Below are positions 3,435 through 64,000 of a stretch of 64,000 bases of DNA, piece by piece; the first letter of the stretch is position 1, and the number at the start of each line of letters is the position of its first letter. A model generated the notes under the pieces. The model ran no database searches. It was given only the letters and a program-made list of their open reading frames with translations, and was not told the origin of the DNA. The stretch is from Eledone cirrhosa (taxonomy: Eukaryota). The stretch is taken from positions 62,001 to 126,000 of the forward strand of contig CAXHJY010000593.1 in assembly GCA_964016885.1 (NCBI GenBank), given 5' to 3'. The position numbers and the translations under genes were made by a program.

Positions 3435-3489
3435 TGTTAAATGATGATGAAGATATATACACACACGCACAGATACATATACATATATA

Positions 3490-3660
3490 TTGTTATACTT
3501 AGGGAGTATCATGCTGTGAATAAATACACTCGCACCTGTTGGTTTTCACTTCAATTTATTACAAATTCCTGGATGTTTATATATTGTCAAAGTTCTTCGT
3601 CACACATTCTGTGATTTCCTCAGTGACCGATTTGCTATTTTGTGTCTCTCATTTGTGGTA
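3490..3660 (-). mobile_element. Penelope-like terminal (pLTR) relic, same family as the 44625 palindrome arm, with decayed hammerhead
   Basis: ttgttatacttagggagtatcatg...cacttcaattt...ttcgtcacacattctgtgatttcctcagtgac matches 44628-44828; minus strand reads gtcaCTGAGGAaatcacagaatgtgtgacGAAgaactttgac. Confidence 0.7.
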
Positions 3661-3920
3661 TGAATCATTTTATAGATTTAGTTGACTAGTATTGTACAGT
3701 AAGTCCTCAACAGAATATAAGTATATAGGGATTTAAACAAAGGCAGACTATATTTTTATACTTTACTACGTAATGTACATTTCTGAACTTTCTATATTTT
3801 AATTAGGTTTGCATAGTTACATAATCCTAGATTTATGGAAGGCACTTCATCAGATGTAAGTTAGATAAACTGTATCATAACATCTCTTTTGGGAGACCAC
3901 ATTATTTTGCATATGATATA

Positions 3921-4359: not shown

Positions 4360-4519
4360 TATAGAGATATGTAAAATCCTGACCACGGTGCCAAGCAGTT
4401 TCAGCTTGTGTGTTCAGGCAAGTGTTTTCAAGGGTATAGACAACACCCTTGAAAAGGCTTGCTGAACACACAAGCCGAAACTGCTTGGTGCCACAGCTGG
4501 GATTTTACATATCTCTATA
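4360..4519. repeat. fold-back inverted repeat (~75-bp arms) with hammerhead-like variant, Penelope-like
   Basis: tatagagatatgtaaaatcc...ttcaagggt / acccttgaa...ggattttacatatctctata; right arm reads cacc-CTTGAAAA-ggcttg(loop)caagcc-GAAA-ctgctt-ggtg. Confidence 0.7.
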
Positions 4520-22009: not shown

Positions 22010-23983
22010 ATAGTGGGACATACTATGGTCACCCATATAGTTAACCAAGTAATACAGAATGGGGTCATACCAAAAGACTGGCATAGCAGCATCATCATTA
22101 ACTGCTACAAGAGTAAAGGGGATGCTCTAGATAGGGGAAACTATAGAGGCATTAAGTTAATTGACCAGGTCATGAAGGTCACAGAAAGAGTTATAGCGCA
22201 ACTAATCAGAGAGCGAATTGATCTAGATTAAATGCAGTTTGGGTTTGTGTCAGGTAAAAGTACCACAGACATCCTTTTCCTTGTACGACAACTACAGGAG
22301 AAGTACCTAGCTAAAAGTAAATCCCTCTATTTAGCTGTTGTAGACCTGGAGAAAGCCTTTGACAGAGTCTCCTGCTCCATTATCTGGTGGGCTCTTAGAA
22401 AACTAGGTGTAGATGAATGGCTTGTGAGAGCTATACATGCTATGTATAAAGAAACAGTCAGTAAGGTTAGAATTAACAATGAACATTGTGAAGAATTTAG
22501 TGTAAAAGTTGGTGTTCATCAAGGCTCTGTCCTTAACCCCCTCCTATTTATTATTGCCCTTCAGGCTATAACAGAGGAGTTTAAGACCGCCTGCCAATGG
22601 GAACTCCTATACGCAGATGATGTAACTCATAGCTGAATCTATGGCTGAACTAGAGAAAATATTTTAAACATGGAAGCATGGCCTAGAATCAAAAGGCCTT
22701 AAAGTTAACTTGTCTAAGACTAAAGTTCTAGTTTGTAGAAAAGAAAATACGGCACAGGTGCCCTCAGGGAAATAGCCATGCTCAGTGTGTAGGAAAGGAG
22801 TAGGCAGAAATTCCATTTTATATTCCAAATGCTAACTATGGGTACATAAAATATGTAGTGGGATCACAGGTAAACTATCTAAGAACGTAGATTTTATATG
22901 TGGCTGATGCTCAGGTGCAATAAATAGCAAGTGCCCACAGGATACTAGCTCCTTTTATTGCTCAGATGGTTCTATATAAATAGTGGACATTTTCCGTTAC
23001 TTGGGTGACAAAATCAGCAGTGGTGGAGGGTGCTCTGAAAGTACAGTAGCCAGAGTCAGAACGGGATGGAAAAAGTTCAGAGAGCTTATACCGCTGTTGG
23101 CCACAAAAGGTTTCTCTCTGAAAATGAAAGGCAGATTGTATGATGCCTGTATACGAACAGCAATACTTCATGGCAGTGAGACATGGGCATTGCGTGCAGA
23201 GGACCTGCGCAGACTAGAAAGGAACGAAGCATGCCTGCTCCATTGGATGTGTAATAGTAATATACGTGAACGGCAAAGCATAAATAAACTGAGAAATTAT
23301 GAATAAGAGGGATCAGATGCTGTTTACTTGAGAGAAAACTACATTGGTATGGTCACGTGATGCGCATGAAAGACGACAGTTGTATAAAAAATGCAGGGCG
23401 ATCAAAATTGATGGTAGTTATGGAGTAGGTAGACCCAGAAAAACCTGGGTTGATTTGATAAATTCCGACCTTACACACTTGCACCCCTCTAAGACAATGT
23501 CACTGGACCGAGATCGTTGGTGCTACATAGTAATACAAAAGATCTGCCTTGCCTATGTACAAAGTGAAACCTACAGTCAGTAGGCACCTCTTAACCAAAT
23601 ATACACCCCAATCCACTACCCCTACCCTATCCTCCCACTCCCACTAACACCACCTTCTCTCTGTAAAGTTGGTACCACAACATCCAGTCCAAATAAATAA
23701 GATAATGAGATTGAGATCGTGTAGGTGACACGACAAAAAAAAAAAATACACACACAGTCCACGCTGTAATGTAGCCGTGTAGGTAACACGGTAAAAAGTT
23801 CCCAGTTCCACAATGTAAATGTGGTTGGTGTTAGGAAGGGCATCCAGCCGTAGAAAACCTGCCAGATAGTCCTATATGAGCGAGACACGGTCACCCGACC
23901 AATCTTGCCTCAAGTGGGACAACTCTCGTCTAACCCATGCTAGCATGGAAGATAGACGTTAAACGAAGATGTTGATGATGATC
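22010..23983 (+). mobile_element. 5'-truncated, stop-riddled RTE LINE (RT, C-terminus, long 3'UTR, (GAT)n tail)
   Basis: ORF pieces with NYRGIKL, QFGF, DLEKAFDRV, GVHQGSVL, YADD, FRYLG and GRPRKTW, colinear with 48236-49984. Confidence 0.95.
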
Positions 23984-30304: not shown

Positions 30305-30810
30305 ACAAAATTAGAAGTTGATTTTTCGCTGTAGCATAGCTGATTGCATAAATGTAAGTATGGGTTATATTGAATAGTAATATTAATATTCGATTCGTTT
30401 GCAAGCAAACAGCCTACTAAGCTATGCTGTGTTTTGATGGCTATCACCATTCATTTGTTCAACAGTAGCATTAAAGAACAATCAACATGTTTCTGGGTCA
30501 TCAGGACTGTATACCTCTCTGCCACTCGATTGAACTGTTGAAAATACATAGTATTTTCTAACGTATACATTTATGTAATCAGCTATGCTAGAGTTACATC
30601 TATGTATCAGCTATGCCAGAGCCAAAAATCAAATTCTAATTTTGTTTTTAATTTTCGGCAAGGCCAGCTGTAAAATTGCTCAGTGTGCAAATGAGGATAA
30701 TCAGCCAATGTATACTTTAGAAAATACTATGTCTTTTCAACAGTTCAATAGAGTGGCAGAGAGATATACAGTCCTGATGAAGGGTAATGACCCAGAAACA
30801 TGTTGAACAA
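30305..30810. mobile_element. Penelope-like compound fold-back next to (TA)n
   Basis: Inverted pairs 30483-30572 / 30707-30806 and 30307-30356 / 30566-30643. Confidence 0.7.
30770..30808 (+). ncRNA. minimal type-I hammerhead ribozyme motif (probably partly decayed)
   Basis: agtc-CTGATGA-a-gggt(aatg)accc-a-GAAA-catg-TT-ga; palindromic stem III (ACATGT). Confidence 0.6.
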
Positions 30811-38685: not shown

Positions 38686-40939
38686 TAATCACTAACAGAC
38701 ATATTTATATGCATAATAGCTACTGTGAAACACACTTTACTGCACATACATTTGTCACACACCCACTGTCTATAACAGCTGCTATGATCTGCATTGAGAA
38801 ACTTCTCCACTCTCTTTCTTTAACATCATCATCACCATTATCAGATATATTATTATAAATATTTTATTATTTGTTTGTGTGGCAAGGAGAAGATTTTATC
38901 CTAACAACCAATATCATTATTGCTATCATGATTTTTGTTTGGGGCTGAAATACAGACAGTATCAAACCCAATACCTGGTTTCAAGCACTACACCTACGTA
39001 ACACCGGCCTTTTAAAGCTCTTTGGAGCATTTAAGATATCTGACATTGTGTTTTTGTTTAAATATCATAACTATGGGTGTCACTATGTCAAATGATGGCA
39101 CCTCATCTCATACCATGCATGATTTATATGCATTATATGTCATTATAAATGCAACTGTCTCTTTTGCACACATTGGTGCATATATGCATTTATTCATTTT
39201 TCTTTGTCACACTCTTGTTTATCAAATATTCTTACTGAAAAATTGTGAACATCATCATCATCATCATCGTTTAACGGCCAGTTTCCCTGTTAGCAATGTT
39301 TAGTACATCTAGATAATGGGTCTTACTTAGCCATTTTAGTAGCTGATGTAAAACTACTTCTGTTAACTGTCCATTCACAACCTTTTTTATCTTCAATTAT
39401 TAACTTCTTATCAGCAATATTGAATCTTTACTATTTTATATGTTGCTATATTTCTAACTATAACAATAACCAGATAGTATTAATGTCTTTCTATGGACAG
39501 ACCTAATTCCAACTTACATTTTATTTTGATACTTTTCTTTAGATAATGCAATTTAATCCGGTTGAGTTGTGATGCAAATTATGGCAGTTTTATTGCATTA
39601 GTCCTGCAGATAGAGATGCATTGAGTTGTAAAAAGCAAACAAAATGGTTTAGTGCTACAAATGTTGGTATTTTTCACTTGTTGTACATGGGAAATTATGT
39701 AAATAACTAAAAGGTCATGACATTTCTTAGTACATATCCTTTAGAGCCTTCTTATTGTCAATTTTTGGTGTTTTGAATTAGTTATATTTTCTTCATTTAG
39801 TATTCATGAAGCAGGCATCTGTTCTATCTCTCCATCTGTCTATCTTTATATATATATAAATAATATACATACACTATATATATAATCTTCCTTAACAACC
39901 ATATTGAATTCATTAAAGTATTTTACTATTCTAACATTTGTCTACAACAGCCTGCCTGTAAAATCTTGAAGAGAATAAAAGTTCTTGAATGATACCATTT
40001 TGCTATGCAATGAGGTTAAAGTACTGAAACAAGTGGCACAAGTTCAAAATTTAATATTTTCCTTGTTTTAATCCACTAGTTTCAAAAGCAGATAATACTT
40101 TTGTCCAATCTTCTGGTGAAATTTAACCTTTTCAGTGCCATATTTCTAATAAAATATGTTGCATATGTGTTTCATTTAATTTTGAAAATGCCAAACATTT
40201 AGAAGACTTTTAATTAAGAACGTTTCTTAAGAAGATTTTCTAAAATAAAATTACTGTATATACTTGTGTATATAAGCTGAGAAATATGTGACAAAAAATA
40301 GCTGGTAAATTGGGGGGTGGCTTATATTTGAGGTCAATATTTTGCCAATTTTCACCAACTTCAAAATTGTACATAAATGAGGTGTTGAAATATTTTCGCA
40401 TGGGAGGTGAATATTACACTGGTTTCACTTTGGAGCTGAATATTATACCAGTTTCGCATTTGACGTGAAATTCATATTTCCTATTATTTTCTTTTTATGT
40501 TTTGAATGAATATGGCCTTCAAGATGGTCGGAAAGTGGTATAAAAAATTGTTGCATTTATGGAGTTGTGAAACAAAAACTAAAAAATTATATAAAATGAT
40601 ATAAGGATAAACATTTGAAAATGAACATTTTTGGTTTCAGGCAGTTTGGTATCAAAAAGGTTGATAATTGAAAAATGGATGTAAAATGACAACAACGATC
40701 CCTCTAATACTATACTTATATGCAAACATTCACAATTATAAAGAACTCAGTGCTGGACTCGGAGTAAAAAGAATTAATAATTTAAATTGGGTCAGTGAAA
40801 CAATACTAGATTATGACTAAGTATAGTTTCATCTGGCAAATTTTCAAAATCATAATTTTGAAAATATGCCAGAGAGTTAGTCATAATTTAGAATTGTTTC
40901 TTTTAGTGTGGAAAATGGCCGTTAAGCGATGATGATGGT

Positions 40940-41676: not shown

Positions 41677-42639
41677 TTTCTTTTTTGTTGTTCTTCTTCT
41701 TCTTCGCCCACTTATTCCTGAGAGGGTCATGGGGGCAGAGTCCTCAAATACTTCTTCCAGTGGGTCCTGTCTGATGCAAGCATCTCCAACTGATCTGGCT
41801 GGATCCTCAAGCGTGACCAACCAAACTCATGGATGTTATCCAACCATCTTGCTCGGGGTCTACCCCTGGGTTTCTTGTCGGTTGGTTTTGCTCATAAAAT
41901 CTGACCAGCAATTCTTTCCTGAGACATTCTAACCACATGCCCATAATTATCAGAGCTGTGATGTTTCAATTCAGAGAAGAAGCGACTCTACTTAGAGTGA
42001 TCTCTGATTTCCAAGCTACGCCCTTTATCAAGTAATGTCACTCCAAAGACCCTTCGGAGGAGTCCCATTTCAGCTGCTTGTATTCGCAGTAAGGGTTGGC
42101 AAGAAAACCGAATTGGAGACAGTGAAAGACCATTCAATGTGGGAGTTAAATTCCGTCAAGAGTGCATACTGCCACCTCTCCTGTTCAGTATTTACATGAA
42201 CAGGATTGACATGCGCAGCTGGGTTGGAAATGGTGTCATGACTGGCAGATGTAAAATCAGTCGACTGGAATTTGCAGACGACATGGTGTTACTTAATTCA
42301 ATAGAAGATGATCTTCAACTTGCACTTGATAGGTTTGATGCCGAGTGCTGCATGGCTGAAATGAAAATCAGTGCTGCAAAAACTGAGACACTCATGCTCT
42401 CAAGGAAGCATGCATAGTGCACGCTACATGTGAATGGAGTTCCACTGAAGAAGGTATAGAAGTGCAAGTATCTCGGGGCTGTGTTCACAAGTGATGAACG
42501 GCAGGAGGCTGAATTAAGTGCAAGAATTGCAAAAGCTGGTGCAGTAATGCACCAGCTTCAGCATTCAGTGATCAGAAGAAGGGAGGTAGGCGTAAAAGCT
42601 AAACTCACTATCTTCAATTCGATTTTCTTTTTTGTTGTT
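41677..42639 (-). mobile_element. RTE family D insertion with 5' inversion and 16-bp TSD
   Basis: 3' part on minus strand (41693-42088, RIQAAEMG to (GAA)n); RT part on plus strand (42089-42623, RQECILPPLLF, FADD, KYLG, KLTIFNSIF); TSD tttcttttttgttgtt at 41677-41692 and 42624-42639. Confidence 0.9.
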
Positions 42640-44262: not shown

Positions 44263-44473
44263 TTAAGGTCTTTCTTGATTATATATGATTACAACTGTTT
44301 CACAGATGGGTGGCTCAGGATCTATATTAATGCTATAGACACGACTCCAGCATGCTCTTCATGCTTGTTAATCAAACAAAGCTAAAATCTCATCAATGGT
44401 GTTGGGTCTATAGCATTTATATAGATCCATCTGTGAAACGATCGTAACTATGTATGATCAATAAGGACCTTAA
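44263..44473. repeat. imperfect fold-back between (TA)n tracts with a hammerhead 3' half
   Basis: ttaaggtc...gtttcacagatgg...gctatagac / gtctatagc...ccatctgtGAAACGATCGTA...gaccttaa. Confidence 0.7.
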
Positions 44474-44601
44474 AGTGAAACGTTGCTTTGTTTTCAATAT
44501 ATACACTCTGCTCTAACATAGAGTGCTGATTTTGGTAAACCTCAGTAAACCATGAATCTACTGAATCACCTAACATATATATATATTTATATATATATAT
44601 T

Positions 44602-44632
<31 letters not shown>

Positions 44633-44783
44633 ATACTTTGGGAGGGTCATGTTGCCAATAAGAAACACACGCACCAGTTGCTTTCACTTCAATTTAATTT
44701 ATTAAATATTTATAAATTTATAAATTTATAAATTTCTGGTTGGTTGGTTGGTTCCACAACCAGATAGTTGTTTATATATATAT

Positions 44784-44828
44784 AGTCATAGTTCTTTCGT
44801 CACACACTCTGTGACCTCTTCAGTGACT
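44784..44828 (-). ncRNA. mirror hammerhead in the left arm
   Basis: Reverse complement of 46178-46222. Confidence 0.75.
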
Positions 44829-45097
44829 GGGGATTTCTTTCTTCGTTTCTGTGCCTTTCCTTTCTTCTATCCTACGCCATTTTGTTTGTGTGTGGGTTGC
44901 GTGCTCAGTTTGCGCATGCGCCACATCCGGGTGTCTGTGTGTGTTTGTGTTCATTTTTCTATTTTTTTATTTGTTTGTTTATTTATTTATTTATTGTTGG
45001 TTGGTTGTTTGTTCTATGTGTGTGTGTGTTTTCATTTTGTGTGTGTTTTCAATTGTAAGTTGTTTGTTCGATGTGTGTGTGTGTTTTCATTTTGTCC

Positions 45098-45479
45098 TTA
45101 ATTGTAAGTTGTGATGTTGCTGTTCCACTCATATTTTCTATTTAATTTTGGTTTTAATTCTTTTATGCTTACTGCCTCTGTAATTTGCCTAAACATTGCG
45201 TCTTTCTTGTGTGTGGATTCTATTTTTATTTCTATGCTCTCTAATTTACCCCTGTGTTCTATCTTAGCATGTTGGTAGAGCACAGATGATTCTTTATTAT
45301 CTTGGAGGTCTCGCCAGTGTTCATTTATTCGTTCCCCTATACTACGAGCTGTCTCACCTATGTACACTACATTTTTGTTTCTACATTGTCCTTCAGTACA
45401 TCTTATGCTATATACTACATTTCTAGTTTTACAGTTAATATGGGGGCTTATTTTACAGGTTATACATTTCTTATCTATA
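45098..45479 (-). pseudogene. mirror copy of the GIY-YIG domain in the left arm
   Basis: Identical translation from IDKKCITCK to the stop. Confidence 0.9.
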
Positions 45480-45480
45480 G

Positions 45481-45893
45481 CAAGACATACCCGTTCCAAA
45501 AGACCCTCATGTATAGATAAGAAATGTATAACCTGTAAAATAAGCCCCCATATTAACTGTAAAACTAGAAATGTAGTATATAGCATAAGATGTACTGAAG
45601 GACAATGTAGAAACAAAAATGTAGTGTACATAGGTGAGACAGCTCGTAGTATAGGGGAACGAATAAATGAACACTGGCGAGACCTCCAAGATAATAAAGA
45701 ATCATCTGTGCTCTACCAACATGCTAAGATAGAACACAGGGGTAAATTAGAGAGCATAGAAATAAAAATAGAATCCACACACAAGAAAGACGCAATGTTT
45801 AGGCAAATTACAGAGGCAGTAAGCATAAAAGAATTAAAACCAAAATTAAATAGAAAATATGAGTGGAACAGCAACATCACAACTTACAATTAA
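45481..45893 (+). pseudogene. Penelope-type GIY-YIG endonuclease domain (5'-truncated; no RT)
   Basis: C..KKCITC..NC..RNVVYSIRC...VYIGETARSIGERINEH...S.LYQH...H...RQITEA..I....P.LNRKYEW*. The N-terminal ~40 aa of the listed 45360 ORF are antisense of the other arm. Confidence 0.9.
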
Positions 45894-46177
45894 GGACAAA
45901 ATGAAAACACACACACACATCGAACAAACAACTTACAATTGAAAACACACACAAAATGAAAACACACACACACATAGAACAAACAACCAACCAACAATAA
46001 ATAAATAAATAAACAAACAAATAAAAAAAATATAAATAGAAAAATAGAAAAATGAACACAAACACACACAGACACCCGGATGTGGCGCATGCGCAAACTG
46101 AGCACGCAACCCACACACAAACAAAATGGCGTAGGATAGAAGAAAGGAAAGGCACAGAAACGAAGAAAGAAATCCCC

Positions 46178-46222
46178 AGTCACTGAAGAGGTCACAGAGT
46201 GTGTGACGAAAGAACTATGACT
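46178..46222 (+). ncRNA. minimal type-I hammerhead ribozyme (Penelope pLTR)
   Basis: Stem I agtca/tgact; CTGAAGA(G); stem II gtcaca/tgtgac; GAAA; 1-bp stem III G(aa)C; CUA triplet, predicted cleavage after 46217. Confidence 0.75.
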
Positions 46223-46435
46223 ATATATATATAAACAACTATCTGGTTGTGGAACCAACCAACCAACCAGAAATTTATAAATTTGTAAATTTATAAATAT
46301 TTAATAAATTAAATTGAAGTGAAAGCAACTGGTGCGTGTGTTTCTTATTGGCAACATGACCCTCCCAAAGTATAACAATATCGGTTTCAACACACGATTT
46401 CAGATAAAGAATCTTGCTAAACAAATTCAGAAACG

Positions 46436-46510
<75 letters not shown>

Positions 46511-46731: not shown

Positions 46732-49700
46732 AATGACCATGCTGTAAAATGGAGGGGTAGAGAGGGCCCTTGAGTCTAGTAAGACATCCTCTCTAGTGCT
46801 GGTGGCACAAATAAAAGCACCCAGTCCATGCTGTAAAGTGGCGCTGGTGTTAGGAAGGGCATCCAATCAATGCCAAAAAGCTTATCAGCACAGCAACAAA
46901 ACAGCATAGAAAAATATGAAGACGTCGCATCTCAGAGTTGCAACACTTAATGTTGGCACTCTTAGAGGTAGATCTGCTGAAATAGCGGAGATGCTGGAGA
47001 GAAGGCAGGTGGATGTGTGCTGCGTGCAAGAGGTGAGATGGAGGGGTGCCTCTGCGAGACTAGTCGTAGGCAAGCGTCTTAGCTATAAGCTATTCTGGGT
47101 AGGTAAGGATGATGGGTTAGGGGGAGTAGGCATTTTCCTGGCTGAGAAATGGATCAATAAGACAATAGAGGTAGTTCGAGTTAGTAATCGAATAATTAAG
47201 CTTAGATTAGTTGTAGGTAGGAGACTACTGACAATCATCTCGGTCTATGCTCCCCAAGCAGGCCTAGGCAAAGATGAGAAAGACTGCTTTTATGAGCAAC
47301 TTTTGCAAACAACCACAATGACAGAGGACGGAGACATTGTTATGCTAGCAGGAGACTTCAATGGTCATGTTGGACAGCTCCAGGATGGTTACACTGGGGT
47401 ACATGGTGGGCACGGTTACAGTTCAAGAAATGAAGAAAGAGTGAGACTTCTTGAATTTTGTGATGCAAGTACATTGACTATTTGCAACACAAACTTCCAG
47501 AAACCTGCCAATCACCTAATAACCTACAAATCTGGTGAGCACATAAGCCAGATTGACTTCCTGCTAGTTAGGCAGCGGGACAGGCAGATAGTGTATAATA
47601 CCAAGGCATACCCTGGGGAAGAATGTACCCCACAGCATAGGTTAGTTGTTAGTGATATCTCAGTAAGCAAGAGATGGAATGAGACATATAGGAAGGTGTG
47701 GAGAAGAAAGGTCTGGAAGCTAAAAGACCTTTCACTAAAATTCAAATTTAGGAAAGCCCTTCAAGATGTATATGACGAAAAAGAAGACGATTTAGAGACG
47801 TATGACATAGATAATAACTGGAAGTTCTTACGTGACAACTTGCTGAAGGCTACTGATGAAACCTGTGGCTGGAGCAGAGCTCCAACCAGACAGAGAGTGA
47901 CCTGGTGGTGGAACAGCAGTGTAGATAAGGCTATTAGAGACAAAAGACTAGCATGGAAGGCTTGGAATAAGGGTGGGAGTAGGGAAGAATATACAGCCAC
48001 TAAGAGAGAAGCTAGACGTCAGGTGTACTTAGCACGCAGGGAGGCAGAGAGTAGGAGGTTTGCCAATGTTCTGCGACGGGAAGATCAGAGGCGTGCGGTG
48101 TTCCACATTGCAAGGCAGTGTGTCAATGCAAATCAGGATGTTGTTGGTGATAAATGTGTCCGGGATGATGCCGGTGTACTTAGTGTCACGAATGACCAGA
48201 AAAAGGAGGCCTGGAAATGTCATTATGAGTGACTGATGAATGTGGAGAACGAATGGGAGAGAGAGAAATTACCCTTGGTAGATCCGACAGAGGGACCAGC
48301 TATTGAGATTGACGAATATAGGGTCCAAGAGGCGATTAGGGAAATGAAAAATGGTAAGGCGGCCGGACCATCGGGAATAGTTGCTGAGATGCTGAAGGCA
48401 TCAGGGGACGTAGGCACTAAACTGGTTGCACGCATAATCAATCAGGCTATATATGGTGGTGTCATACCCAAAGACTGGTGCAGCAGTATTCTCATAAATT
48501 GCTACAAAGGTAAAGGGGATGCTTTGGAGAGGAGCAATTATAGGGGTATAAAACTGATAGATCAGGTTATGAAAGTGGCAGAAAGGATTTTAGCACAACT
48601 AATTAGAGAAAGGGTCAAACTAGATGAGATGCAGTTTGGTTTTGTGCCTGGGAAGAGTACAACAGATGCCCTCTTCTTGGTGAGACAAATGCAAGAGAGG
48701 TTCTTAGAGAAGAATAAGCCACTATACTTAGCCTTTGTTGACCTAGAGAAGGCCTTTGATAGGGTACCCCGATCTGTCATCTGGTGGTCCCTAAGGAAGC
48801 TGGGTGTTGAGGAATGGCTTGTAAGGACAGTGCAAACTTTGTACAGAGGTACTCTCAGTAAAGTCAGGGTAGGAATGGAGTTTAGTGAGGAATTCCAGAT
48901 ACAAGTAGGAGTACATCAGGGTTCGGTCCTCAGCCCGCTCTTGTTCATTATAGTCCTCCAAGCCATAACAGAGGAGTTTAAGACTGGCTGTCCATGGGAA
49001 CTTCTCTATGCTGACGATCTGGCTCTTATGGCAGAATCAGTAGAGGAGCTAGAGAATAAATTCCGGCTATGGAAACAGCAGTTGGAAGCAAGAGGACTGA
49101 GAGTAAATCTAGCTAAGACAAAAGTGTTGATGAGTAGAAAAGAGGACAAAACCCTGATTCCGTCAGGGAAATGGCCATGTTCGATATGCAGAAAAGGAAC
49201 TGGCATAAATTCTATAAAATGCACACAATGTAGGTCCTGGGTACACAAGAGATGTAGCGGGATAGCAGGCAAACTAACAGGTAGGGAGAAATATGTATGC
49301 AGTAGATGTACAGGGAAATTAGACAGTAGAAGTCGCACTGATAGACACATTTTTCAAATGCGAGAGGGCGCTATAGAAGTGGTGGATAGCTTCCGGTACC
49401 TAGGAGATCAGATTAGCATGGGAGGAGGGTGTTCCGAGGCCATAGTATCTAGAATAAGGACGGGTTGGAAGAAGTTTAGGGAGCTGCTTCCTCTGTTGAC
49501 GAAGAAGGGTTTCTCCCTGCGTACGAAAGGCCGGTTGTATGATGCCTGTGTGAGGAGCGCGATGCTGCATGGTAGTGAGACATGGGCAGCTACCGCAGAA
49601 GATATGCGACGGCTGGAGAGAAATGAGGCAAGCATGCTCCGTTGGATGTGCATTGTAAATGTGCGTGAACGACCCAGCATAAATGTGTTGAGAGAGAAAC

Positions 49701-50011
49701 TGTGTCTGAGAGGGATAGAATGTAGTGTACGGGAGAGGAGACTGAGGTGGTATGGACATGTGATGCGCATGGAGGATGACCGATGGGTGAAGAAGTGCCA
49801 GGAAATGCCAGTTGAAGGAAGACGTGGTAGAGGTAGACCACGAAAAACATGGGCGGAGGTGGTGAGAACAGACCTCAGATCATTGAAGCTCACGGTGGAG
49901 ATGACGAGGGACCGTGACGAGTGGAGAGATGCTGTGCTGAATAAGACCCGTCCCACCCTTGCAAGCAGGGAAAAGCGGACGTAAAATGATGATGATGATG
50001 ATGATGATGAT
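46732..50011 (+). mobile_element. near full-length RTE-clade LINE (subfamily A)
   Basis: ~185-bp 5'UTR, single ORF with APE EN and RT, stop codon directly abutting a (GAT)n tail. Confidence 0.95.
46916..49984 (+). pseudogene. RTE polyprotein (AP endonuclease, reverse transcriptase, PHD-like finger), ~1022 codons with one in-frame TGA at 48230-48232
   Basis: ATLNV, VQEVRW, GDFNGHVG, QIDF, QHRLV; KAAGPSG, NYRGI, QFGF, DLEKAFDRV, GVHQGSVLSP, YADD, FRYLG. ORFs 46916-48232 and 48236-49984 are in the same frame. Confidence 0.95.
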
Positions 50012-50868
50012 AGTTCCACAGGAATTACTAAACCATACTTGACAACACGTTTTTCACCTAAAAAGGATTTTCAACTGATAAGATGAAAATCCTTTTCAGA
50101 TGAAACACGTGTTTTCAAGTTTAGTTATATATCTTATATATATATATACACACACACACATATAGAGAGAAAGAGAGAGAGACAGAGTTTTATTGTGGTA
50201 ACTAATTGATGCTTTTAGGTTCTTTCATAAAAAGTTGTCTATGTGTATTATGTATGTTTGGTTGTGTATTTATGTATTGTGTGACGAAGGGAGTGTACCT
50301 ACATTTAGGTATCTTAAGGAATGTATTTTCAGACATGTCTATATACCAAGGTTTTGGAGTAGTTTGTGTGTACATATGTGTATGTTTAGTTTCTAATGGT
50401 GTTAAGAGAGAGAAAGTGTGTTTTTTAATGAATGTGAGAAAAAATATGGAAGAAACAAGTGAGCATTTTGCTGTTTTGTTCAGTGTTTACTTGAATATTT
50501 TTCAATAATGAATCTAAATAATTTTATCATAAGTTTATTTATTACATTTCCATAACACATAAAATAAAATATGACACCAGAGTATTGATGTTGATGATAC
50601 TACTAATAATAATATAAATGTGTGTAGCAATATATGTTGTTTTAATCTTGGAGGTAAATTTATGAGAAATCTGATGTTTTCATGAGTCATGAACACATTT
50701 TGAGTATTTTTTTTAGAGAAAAGACATTACACAAAAATAACACACGTACTATCTTCCTCCACCCCATCGAAATATGCTCGCCTTTGTTTTTCAAAGAAAA
50801 TTATTTTAGTTCATTTCTTAGTTCATGTTACCACTGTTTTAAAATCCAATGTTTTGTTCATCTTCTTT

Positions 50869-52127: not shown

Positions 52128-52339
52128 TGCTGTCGACAATTTTTAATTATCAGCTAATTTGTCAGTATTCTTGATATGTGAGAGAACAATATATAATAAA
52201 AATAAAATTAAATCAATAAGAATTCATTTAAATGAATTTTATAGACAAAAGCAATATGTTTGGAACGTGACCAGCAAAGTTTTTACAATTGGAATAGAAA
52301 TAGGAGCATTGCCGTAACATTGACTACATAATATAGTCT

Positions 52340-52790
52340 AATAATTGTTTCTACTTTAGGCACAAGGCCAGCAATTACCCAGTACATTACTGGTACTTTA
52401 TTTTATCGACCCCGTAAGGATGAAAGGCAAAGTTAACCTCGGCGGGATTTGAACTCAGACTGTAAAGGGACGTAACTAATAATATAGTCTAATAATGGGA
52501 TATATAAACCCACTGAATGGAAGAAGATGGGAATCAGCTCCCATGTGTACTGATACCCATCTTTTAAGACAGTGGATTGGCAGTATCGGTAGAGCGCCGA
52601 ACAACATGCTTTGTGGCTTATAGTTACGGTTCTTTAAGTTCTGATTTCAAATCCTGCTGAGGTTAGCTTTGACTTTCATTCTTATAGGGTCGATACAATA
52701 AAGTACCAGTAATGAACCTGGGTTGATTTAATCGACTTTCCCCTCGCCTAAAATTGCTGGTCGTGTGCCTAAATCAGAAATCATTATGTA
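52340..52790. mobile_element. two SINE S2 copies (minus 52340-52478; plus ~52575-52790)
   Basis: S2 core on both strands; aatatagtctaataat duplicated around the minus-strand copy. Confidence 0.8.
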
Positions 52791-53542
52791 GTCAATGTTG
52801 TGGCAATGCTTCTATTTCTATTTCAATTCTAATTTTATTGAATTTTCACCAATTTCTATTGTATATTTTAAGTAAAGTAAACTCTCATATTTAAGGTTAT
52901 ATTATAATCTGACTTATCAAACTTCAAATCATTGAGGTACTACATGGATTTAAGTTTATTACAAATTTATTTTACTCAACAAGAATAAGATATCTTTATG
53001 AATAAAGAAAAATGTAATGTTGGTAATCATGGTAATAGTGATGATGATGATGCCACCAATAACACCACTGCTATAACAACTAACGTTACCACTACTATCT
53101 CTACCTTCTCTTTTTCTCTCTCCCTCTCTTTCTATTTCTCTCTCTTCCACCCTCTTTTCTCTCTTCTCTCTCTCTCCCTCCATTTACTGTTTTCATCATT
53201 ACTAACATTGCTGTCAGTGCCAATACTCTGATACCATGATTTACTTTGATTTAATTCCCCTAGTATGATGAATATCTTACATTAAAGATGCAAGCTTATT
53301 AATATTATGATTTGTATGCAGTAAGTGAAAAAGGAGTTGAAGAAATAAACTGTATGTTAGTGCAGTTTCTCACTATTATATATTATTATCTATACAATTA
53401 AGGCAGTCAGTTGGCACATCAATAATAGTGTTCTTCACTCTTCGTAGTACTAATCCAACTGAACACTACTTAATCTTTTATGCCAGCCTTGAAAATTACA
53501 ACGCAAATTCCTCATCTCCATTATTATTAGTATTATAAATAA

Positions 53543-61970: not shown

Positions 61971-63331
61971 CAGTGGAGTTCAAGACCGGCTGCCCATGGG
62001 AACTCCTATACGCAGATGATCTAACGCTCATAGCTGAATCAATGGCCGAGCTAGAGAAGAAATTCCAAACATGGAAGCACGGCCTAGAATCAAAAGGCCT
62101 TAAAATTAACCTAGCTAAGACTAAAGTTCTAGTTTGTAAGAAAGAAAATAAGGCGGCGGTCCCCTCCGGGAAGTGGCCATGCGCAGAGTGTAGGAAAGGC
62201 GTAGGTAGAAATTCCTTTTGTGTCCAAATGCAAAGTTTGGGTGCATAAAAGATGTAGTGGGATCACAGGTAAGCTAACTAAGAACATAGATTTTACATGT
62301 GGCCGGTGTTCTGGGGATATAAGTAGCAGCAAGTGCCCACAAAATACTAGCTCTTTCAACTGCGCAGAGGGTTCTATAGAAATAGTGGACAGCTTCCGTT
62401 ACCTGGGTGACAAAATCAGCAGTGGGGGAGGGTGCTCTGAAAGTACAGTAGCTAGAGTCAGAACTGGGTGGAAAAAGTTCAGAGAGCTTATACCACTATT
62501 AGCCGCTAAAGGGTTCTCCCTAAAAATGAAAGGCAGGCTGTACGATGCCTGCATACGAACAGCAATGTTGCATGGCAGTGAGACCTGGGCATTGTGTGCA
62601 GAGGATATACGCAGACTAGAGAGAAACGAAGCTTGCATGCTCCGCTGGATGTGTAATAGTAATATACGTGAACGACAAAGCATAAACGAACTAAGGAAAA
62701 AATTAGAAATAAGAGGGATCAGATGTTGTTTACTAGAGAGAAGGCTACGTCGGTATGGTCACGTGATGCGCATGAAGGATGATAGCTGTATAACAAAGTG
62801 CAGGGCAATAAAGATAGACGGTAGCCACGGAATAGGCAGACCCAGAAAAACCTGGGACGAGCTGATAAACACCGACCTCACACACTTACACCTCACCAAG
62901 ACAATGTCACTGGACCGAGACCTTTGGCGGTACTCAGTAATAGAGAAGACCCGCCTTGCCAGTAGGCATCTCTAACAAAATACACCCCGTCCCACCACCA
63001 CAACCCCCACCCCATCCACACCACCCCGTTCTATGTAAAGTTATGTTGGTGCCGCGCCATCCAGGCTGAAACAAATGAGATCGTGTAGGTGTCACGACAA
63101 AAAAACACACAGTCCACGCTGTAATGTGGCCGTGTAGGCAACACGGTAAAAACCTCCCAGACCCACACTGTAAATGTGGTTGGTGTTAGGAAGGGCATCC
63201 AACTGTAGAAAACCTGCCAGACAGTCCTATGCGAGCGAGAAAATCACTCTTGCCTCAAGTGGGACTACCCCCGTCCAAACCCATGCAAGCGTGGAACACG
63301 GACGTTAAACGTTGATGATGATGATGATGAT
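61971..63331 (+). mobile_element. 5'-truncated RTE (subfamily B) inserted in (TA)n; frameshift near 62218
   Basis: [15 protein letters not shown]...WPCAEC / CKVWVHKRC...FRYLG...GRPRKTW; ~350-bp 3'UTR; (GAT)n tail. Confidence 0.95.
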
Positions 63332-63755: not shown

Positions 63756-64000
63756 GGATCTTCTGAAACTAACAAAGTCAATCTGTAAACGCAGAACTGG
63801 ATATTTCAAAAAACGTTGCAACCGGAGGAAGACAGGAAGACGATACTTTGGTTCATGGTGACGTTCGCTGGCAAAGAACGGGTGCCAGCGAACGTCACCA
63901 TGAACCAAGGTATCGTCTTCCTGTCTTCCTCCGGTTGCAACGTTTTTTGAAATATCCAGTTCTGCGTTTACAGATTGACTTTGTTAGTTTCAGAAGATCC
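63756..64000. repeat. palindrome, arms of at least 118 bp with 9-bp spacer, running off the window end
   Basis: 63756-63873 versus 63883-64000, one mismatch; spacer aagaacggg. Confidence 0.95.

Follow-up and report, generated by a model that had tools for sequence, protein, structure and literature searches.

We analysed a window of 64,000 nt from Eledone cirrhosa (contig CAXHJY010000593.1, positions 62,001 to 126,000 of the forward strand), in which two inverted copies of one retroelement form a long palindrome flanked by TA microsatellites (Table 1). The arms of the palindrome span 44625-45479 (855 nt) and 45512-46381 (870 nt) and are separated by a spacer of 32 nt. They differ from one another by a single substitution (44721/46285) and by one 15-nt indel, which falls within A-rich sequence of low complexity (after 44961 in the left arm, 46030-46044 in the right); their identity by substitutions is 99.9%. 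These coordinates and both differences reproduce those given in the original prediction from the sequence. The sense directions of both copies point outward, and the copies therefore lie head to head. The right copy is a 5'-truncated Penelope-like element (PLE, 45480-46438) with a linker that appears Nematis-like, and it exceeds the left copy at both ends, by the spacer on one side and by a 57-nt tail on the other. The spacer is element sequence of the right copy and not a neutral loop. It encodes the same linker residues as related proteins, and near 45498 it has one base more than most family copies. On the outside, the left copy ends at the short end of the element (equivalent to 46381) and the right copy at a longer tail end, which are different element positions. 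The unit had been described as bounded by (TA)n; this holds on the left, but on the right 57 nt of element sequence (46382-46438) intervene before the TA run.

Table 1. Features of the inverted unit and of a related solo stub, in window coordinates.
Feature	Position	Strand	Evidence
Older solo stub with decayed hammerhead, ending on the left arm's base into a TA-rich repeat	3487..3661	-	84-86% identity in two blocks
Left target: interrupted (TA)n microsatellite	44574..44624	.	sequence
Left arm: inverted 5'-truncated copy, fully inside the right copy's extent, tail absent	44625..45479	-	arm alignment
Minimal type-I hammerhead, left arm	44784-44828	-	descriptor search; predicted cut near 44789
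177-aa ORF: antisense-derived start and antisense spacer fused to endonuclease; ATG 45631	45098..45631	-	
177-aa ORF: 40 antisense-derived residues, spacer off native frame up to extra base, then endonuclease; ATG 45360	45360..45893	+	
Central junction: 2-nt TA microhomology between inverted arm and native upstream sequence	45478..45479	.	loose end before 45478, 3 contigs of run X4
Spacer: native element sequence, end of RT-EN linker, right copy only	45480..45511	+	relatives' linker residues, family copies
C-terminal GIY-YIG endonuclease with upstream CX4CxxC linker finger, CCHH motif and R/H/E/N positions; stop 45891-45893	45507..45893	+	Pfam, alignment
3' UTR / pseudo-LTR (pLTR), right copy: low-complexity part, hammerhead, TA run 46222-46233, ATG 46356	45894..46381	+	
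Minimal type-I hammerhead, right arm	46178-46222	+	descriptor search; predicted cut after 46217
28-codon open frame from ATG 46356; 9 codons in arm, rest in tail	46356..46439	+	weak match to relatives' N-termini
Tail, 57 nt, family sequence, right end only	46382..46438	+	family depth high over 46392-46425 in all 4 runs
Right target: pure (TA)n microsatellite	46439..46506	.	sequence

The GIY-YIG domain that had been proposed for each arm was confirmed by Pfam matches that narrowly pass the curated cut-off (24.0 and 23.8 bits for the two arms, cut-off 22.6), with the catalytic positions kept in both. An alignment of 10 sequences showed the Cys, Tyr and Gly positions to be invariant and R, E, H, H, E and N to be nearly so. 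The Penelope-like identity of the parts was likewise borne out, as 30 of 33 related proteins match the window solely in the two arms; the best identity of related proteins to the arms reaches 57%. An RT catalytic motif lies upstream of the endonuclease position in 28 of the 33; of 8 relatives scanned with Pfam, 2 gave an RT match, which was weak (E 0.003-0.004) and fell short of the cut-off. Comparison with the related proteins gave no RT in this copy or elsewhere in the window. The nearest solved sequence is the GIY-YIG catalytic domain of I-TevI (PDB 1mk0, 1ln0), a weak match (E 0.014); I-TevI is a phage homing endonuclease and, unlike the present domain, is without PLE zinc motifs.

The linker of the element appears to be of the Nematis type, an assignment made by eye from linker spacing and not from an RT tree. 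In the supplementary alignments accessible for PMC8557442, Nematis elements likewise have a C-terminal endonuclease, a CCHH motif and a short CX4CxxC linker, with 7 residues between it and the following Cys. The Nematis rows that carry names come from nematodes; for the present element, the closest named relative among animals is an Octopus vulgaris protein (P0023). Three other clades were rejected. For Neptune, which was our first guess, the distance from the linker finger to the next Cys is about 20 residues or more in the alignment rows, compared with 7 here. The Hydra clade is defined by the absence of CCHH and by a CxCX5C linker, whereas CCHH is present here. Naiad elements carry an N-terminal endonuclease and no canonical hammerhead, while here the endonuclease is followed by a stop codon and a 3' UTR with a hammerhead, and the RT lies upstream in relatives.

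The minimal hammerhead predicted on each strand was recovered in both arms by a descriptor search, with the predicted cut of the right-arm motif where it had been placed. These two were the only descriptor matches in the window, and an equally strong match occurred in 0 of 100 Markov-shuffled 60-kb sequences. The right-arm motif consists of a 5-bp helix I, a CUGAAGA core, an extra base before helix II, a 6-bp helix II and GAAA, with a helix III of 2 bp and an AA loop. An Rfam search at gathering and E-value thresholds gave no hammerhead match and returned only chance matches on TA repeats and on the hairpin centre, and the folding energy of the hammerhead, taken alone, lies within the ordinary range (z about -1.3). 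Dual minimal hammerheads on opposite strands, with an extra base at 9/10.1, have been described in PLEs (PMC4209133; this and the other papers are cited from those parts of their text that were accessible). The features that define PLE minimal hammerheads are found here, namely the core boxes, the extra base at 9/10.1, G10.1-C11.1, a short helix I and a long helix II, and all of these after the core boxes, together with the placement on opposite strands, are shared with the motifs in the accessible text of PMC4209133. The present pair differs from them in two respects: the helix III loop is AA and hence not a perfect palindrome, and the two hammerheads lie about 1.36 kb apart, compared with about 100-700 bp. 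In dimer geometry G15.2-C16.2 is complementary, and the AA loop would leave two A-A mismatches. According to the same source, minimal hammerheads of this type show no cleavage as monomers and little as dimers; the Poseidon hammerhead requires protein and is dispensable for insertion in vitro (PMC11167929). Because the two hammerheads lie on opposite strands, we infer that one transcript would carry just one of them. Among the best-supported 40 of 134 base differences between family copies, none falls within the hammerhead and many flank it (46171-46280), a pattern that is suggestive of constraint. A non-LTR retrozyme, as such tandem, same-strand hammerhead repeats are described in the accessible literature, was rejected because the copies here are inverted and carry coding sequence.

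The family to which the element belongs is abundant. Sequences matching 45440-46440 were found in 12,221 contigs of run X1, 699 of X4, 504 of X5 and in 176,177 reads of X22, where X22 is a reduced-representation (RAD) library with cut sites inside the element, so that the matching counts are not copy numbers. The four runs were drawn from 24 listed, of which those with a share under 0.2, the single RNA run X16 (0.13) among them, were left aside. The identities of these matches fill all bands from under 90% up to 99% and more, and some contigs of X4 and X5 match the window without a difference over 99-173 nt, suggestive of a recent subfamily. No published name for the family emerged from a literature search that extended neither to Repbase nor to the bulk of subscription journals. 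The left arm stops at the natural short end of the family, since in 127 X1 contigs the element gives way to AT repeats at 46381, and the solo stub at 3487-3661 stops at that very base. A BLAST search found no inverted partner of this stub among the matches listed. At the other end of the arm, three X4 contigs continue upstream of 45478 with other sequence, and because native sequence runs on there, the centre of the palindrome is a 5' truncation. Two further signals were discarded. Sharp read starts and ends in X22 (46088, 45745-45748, 46275 and 46427) coincide with GCATGC and AATT sites and are therefore RAD restriction ends and not element ends, and a C at 45921 was dropped as a private variant because a neighbouring repeat unit can mis-map there.

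Beyond the short end, the tail of the right copy extends the open frame that begins in the arm. This 28-codon frame probably opens the next ORF copy in a source tandem, as judged from its weak resemblance to the N-termini of relatives. When the tail peptide was compared with whole relatives, 59 of 500 shuffles scored as well, which is not significant; when the comparison was confined to the N-terminal 40 residues of 29 long relatives, the corresponding number was 81 of 2,000, which is marginal. An ORF start that lies in the pLTR plus the tail, with an inverted pLTR and with the tail holding more of the ORF start, has been described by Arkhipova et al. (2013, accessible text of PMC3846280). The tail measures 57 nt here, compared with 30-40 nt in published Penelope-like insertion units.

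We consider it very probable that the locus is a young, dead-on-arrival insertion of this abundant, endonuclease-positive Penelope-like family with a Nematis-like linker. An origin at the time of insertion had already been proposed, and we agree with it; the whole arrangement, and not just its parts, is a textbook Penelope insertion unit as far as such units are set out in the accessible text of PMC8557442 and PMC3846280. The canonical endonuclease-positive unit in these sources shares with the locus a head-to-head truncated copy, a one-sided tail, what is probably an ORF start in the pLTR plus tail, a TA run in the pLTR, and a (TA)n target that hides any target duplication. An inverted 5'-truncated copy beside the element, a tail confined to one end and (TA)n targets are described in the Figure 2 legend and the text of Craig et al. 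(2021, PMC8557442), and head to head is the most frequent arrangement (PMC3846280, accessible portion). The locus departs from the canonical unit in that both copies are truncated at nearly the same place, which leaves no RT and makes it almost all palindrome. Poseidon of Anolis (PAc; Frangieh et al., 2024, PMC11167929) belongs to a different clade and resembles the present element in its AT-rich target, in ends that probably lie inside the ORF start and in a tail between two end positions; its inverted copies are left unexplained in the portion of the main text that was accessible. The locus appears to be a family member of described shape and not a new gene or system. Most likely it is inactive, with the hammerheads and ORFs as passengers. 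The endonuclease frame is still intact, which fits the youth of the insertion and is also compatible with use.

Such closely matched arms could also arise if a single copy had folded back during library preparation or assembly, or if polishing had homogenised two arms. The 99.9% identity by substitutions would fit this reading, as would the observation that the central junction was bridged by none of the 24 pieces listed out of 13,569. If the palindrome were an artefact of this kind, then its two ends should not lie at different element positions, one of them natural, with each entering its own unique flank. The arms also differ at two places, although polishing could still hide some differences. 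Arm identity is 83-99% among the seven other small fold-backs of the window, a spread that genuine insertions of unequal age would show. We therefore regard an artefact as very unlikely. Gene conversion can keep the arms of a palindrome alike, and a pair formed after insertion, through inverted duplication or through recombination of neighbouring copies, could have been homogenised in this way. The left arm, however, stops exactly at the short end of the family and joins its own (TA)n, and these elements ordinarily give rise to head-to-head pairs (PMC3846280, accessible text), so that a post-insertion origin appears highly improbable.

Several observations bear on how an insertion of this shape was built. 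Minority variants are common to both arms, such as G at 45621 where A accounts for 99% of X1 depth, and the arms must therefore derive from one template or have been homogenised. The two truncation points are 32 nt apart. Among the best-supported 15 of 123 joints in X22, three show a strand switch, with spacings of 13, 189 and 424 nt, suggesting other inverted copies; each of these joints has one or two start sites, and library chimeras could account for them. In vitro, purified Poseidon protein was found to cut both strands and to extend them, with the tail lying between two RT start sites (PMC11167929, accessible text). How Penelope elements build the inverted copy is described as still open (PMC8557442, section 15), and we found no worked-out model specific to it in a literature search that left most subscription papers outside.

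In the sequence of events that we propose, an intact copy elsewhere would supply both the protein and a tandem RNA, and the GIY-YIG domain of that source protein would cut a (TA)n run. Reverse transcription would then start inside the start of the next ORF copy and stop after about 0.9 kb, just upstream of the endonuclease, which is how the RT would have been lost from this copy. In the route that we tentatively favour, both cut ends would be primed, the right one at the long (tail) site and the left one at the short site, where the long end at 46438 is taken as a start site from this copy alone and the short end at 46381 is recurrent. The long cDNA would then fold back on the 2-nt TA match and be copied towards the left end. 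Fold-back copying of one cDNA is favoured by the shared minority variants and by the 32-nt gap between the truncation points. The natural end of the left arm speaks for a left cut end that was primed at a start site of its own, all the more because the longer internal TA run at 46222-46233 was not used for joining.

A snap-back of the cDNA during insertion, which is the route originally predicted, accounts for how tight the centre is and how nearly identical the arms are; by itself it leaves unexplained a left arm that stops on the natural short end and a tail on the right only. In its pure form we consider it possible, if somewhat unlikely. Two independent cDNAs joined end to end are an unlikely source of the palindrome, and other routes, such as the self-priming on an antisense template that Arkhipova et al. 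proposed for head-to-head junctions (PMC3846280, accessible text), are quite improbable taken together. The idea that a strong native hairpin in the spacer drove the fold-back was rejected, as only a weak 5-bp extra stem appears in the minimum-energy fold and it is absent from the centroid. Counted across the genome, the ends of arms, the lengths of spacers and the differences between arms could tell a snap-back apart from priming on either side of the cut.

The geometry of the palindrome also bears on its coding capacity. Both of the 177-aa, ATG-led ORFs that had been noted are present, one on each strand, and with them it had been suggested that the locus could yield an RT-less nuclease with a de novo N-terminus. 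We simulated 2,068 combinations of truncation and spacer, which are not independent of one another, and obtained an ATG-led ORF on both strands in 49%, and on the top strand in 63% and the bottom strand in 69%. Since about half of the simulated fold-backs yield both, the fused ORFs are expected from the geometry and are a by-product of it. Both ORFs are open and ATG-led with intact catalytic positions, and stand-alone GIY-YIG ORFs are mentioned for Terminons (PMC8557442, accessible text), which speaks for expression of an RT-less GIY-YIG nuclease with a new hydrophobic N-terminus. The plus-strand ORF, however, crosses the spacer off the native frame and relies on an extra base that most copies lack, this base being missing in 251 of 295 X22 reads and in 99% of X1 depth. 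The 40-residue extension scored no better than shuffles against 35 relatives (29, with a shuffle mean of 31) and is without a homologue, and the three near-length database matches to the fused ORF cover just 47-69% of the query. Expression of such a nuclease is therefore extremely unlikely, and this part of the original prediction is not supported. We give equally little credence to the broader proposal that Penelope fold-back is a route to new genes, in which an antisense ATG and a hydrophobic leader fall in frame with GIY-YIG about half the time, and that a host-kept RT-less nuclease is translated here from a flanking transcript.

A transcript from the flanks that read through the insertion would form an 855-bp hairpin, which might be processed into siRNA or subjected to A-to-I editing and so help to silence the family. 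The predicted fold pairs 1,718 of the 1,757 bases of the unit, and the Penelope siRNAs of transgenic D. melanogaster corresponded to the inverted parts of rearranged copies (PMC3681739, accessible text). Against this, the arms point outward, so that a promoter in the pLTR would, judging from the layout, fire into the flanks and not across the palindrome. Further, no host exon was found among 144 ORFs (143 of 147 low-complexity-filtered ORFs of at least 60 aa, with two previously scanned and the last two left out, plus the tail frame), where only retroelement domains passed the Pfam cut-offs; the locus could still lie in a long intron. We regard read-through silencing as doubtful, and were it to occur, the outcome would be one already known. 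A>G and G>A differences were not accepted as signs of editing because they come from DNA or from unlabelled runs and reflect copy divergence. Nothing specific to PLE hairpins in octopus was found in the literature searched, which left most subscription papers outside. If the host edits RNA heavily, young near-perfect palindromes would be natural places to seek both editing and siRNA.

As transposon debris of described shape, the locus itself is of little import. Its modest value is as material, since it represents an abundant family that has a recent subfamily, a sharply defined short end and a tail of some length at the other end.

The seven other fold-backs in the window are small. One is a head-to-head pair at 30482-30571 and 30707-30806, whose copies agree in 86 of 90 columns and are separated by a 135-nt spacer. 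Each strand carries a hammerhead-like core in which GAAA is followed by the palindrome CATG; the pair failed the hammerhead descriptor and is probably an older stub of another Penelope family. A near-perfect palindrome at 63756-64000 (117 of 118 columns, 9-nt spacer) has its right arm at the window edge and gave no match to the fetched Penelope proteins. The remaining five, at 4360-4519, 40797-40900, 44263-44473, 50031-50126 and 52283-52832, have arm identities of 83-94%, several of them lie beside TA runs, and they could be further Penelope stubs or MITEs; the one at 44263-44473 lies 150 nt left of the main palindrome.

The neighbourhood holds other retroelements as well. Some 400 nt to the right of the palindrome, a nearly intact LINE, which we take to be RTE-like, encodes an AP endonuclease, an RT and a PHD finger on the plus strand (46910-49984) and is interrupted by one in-frame stop at 48230-48232. 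Fragments related to it lie at 1-432, 22232-22633 and 62205-62972, and a further RT fragment lies at 42001-42414. Between 58500 and 62000, a TA/CA microsatellite of about 3.4 kb apparently interrupts a LINE fragment that resumes near 61975.
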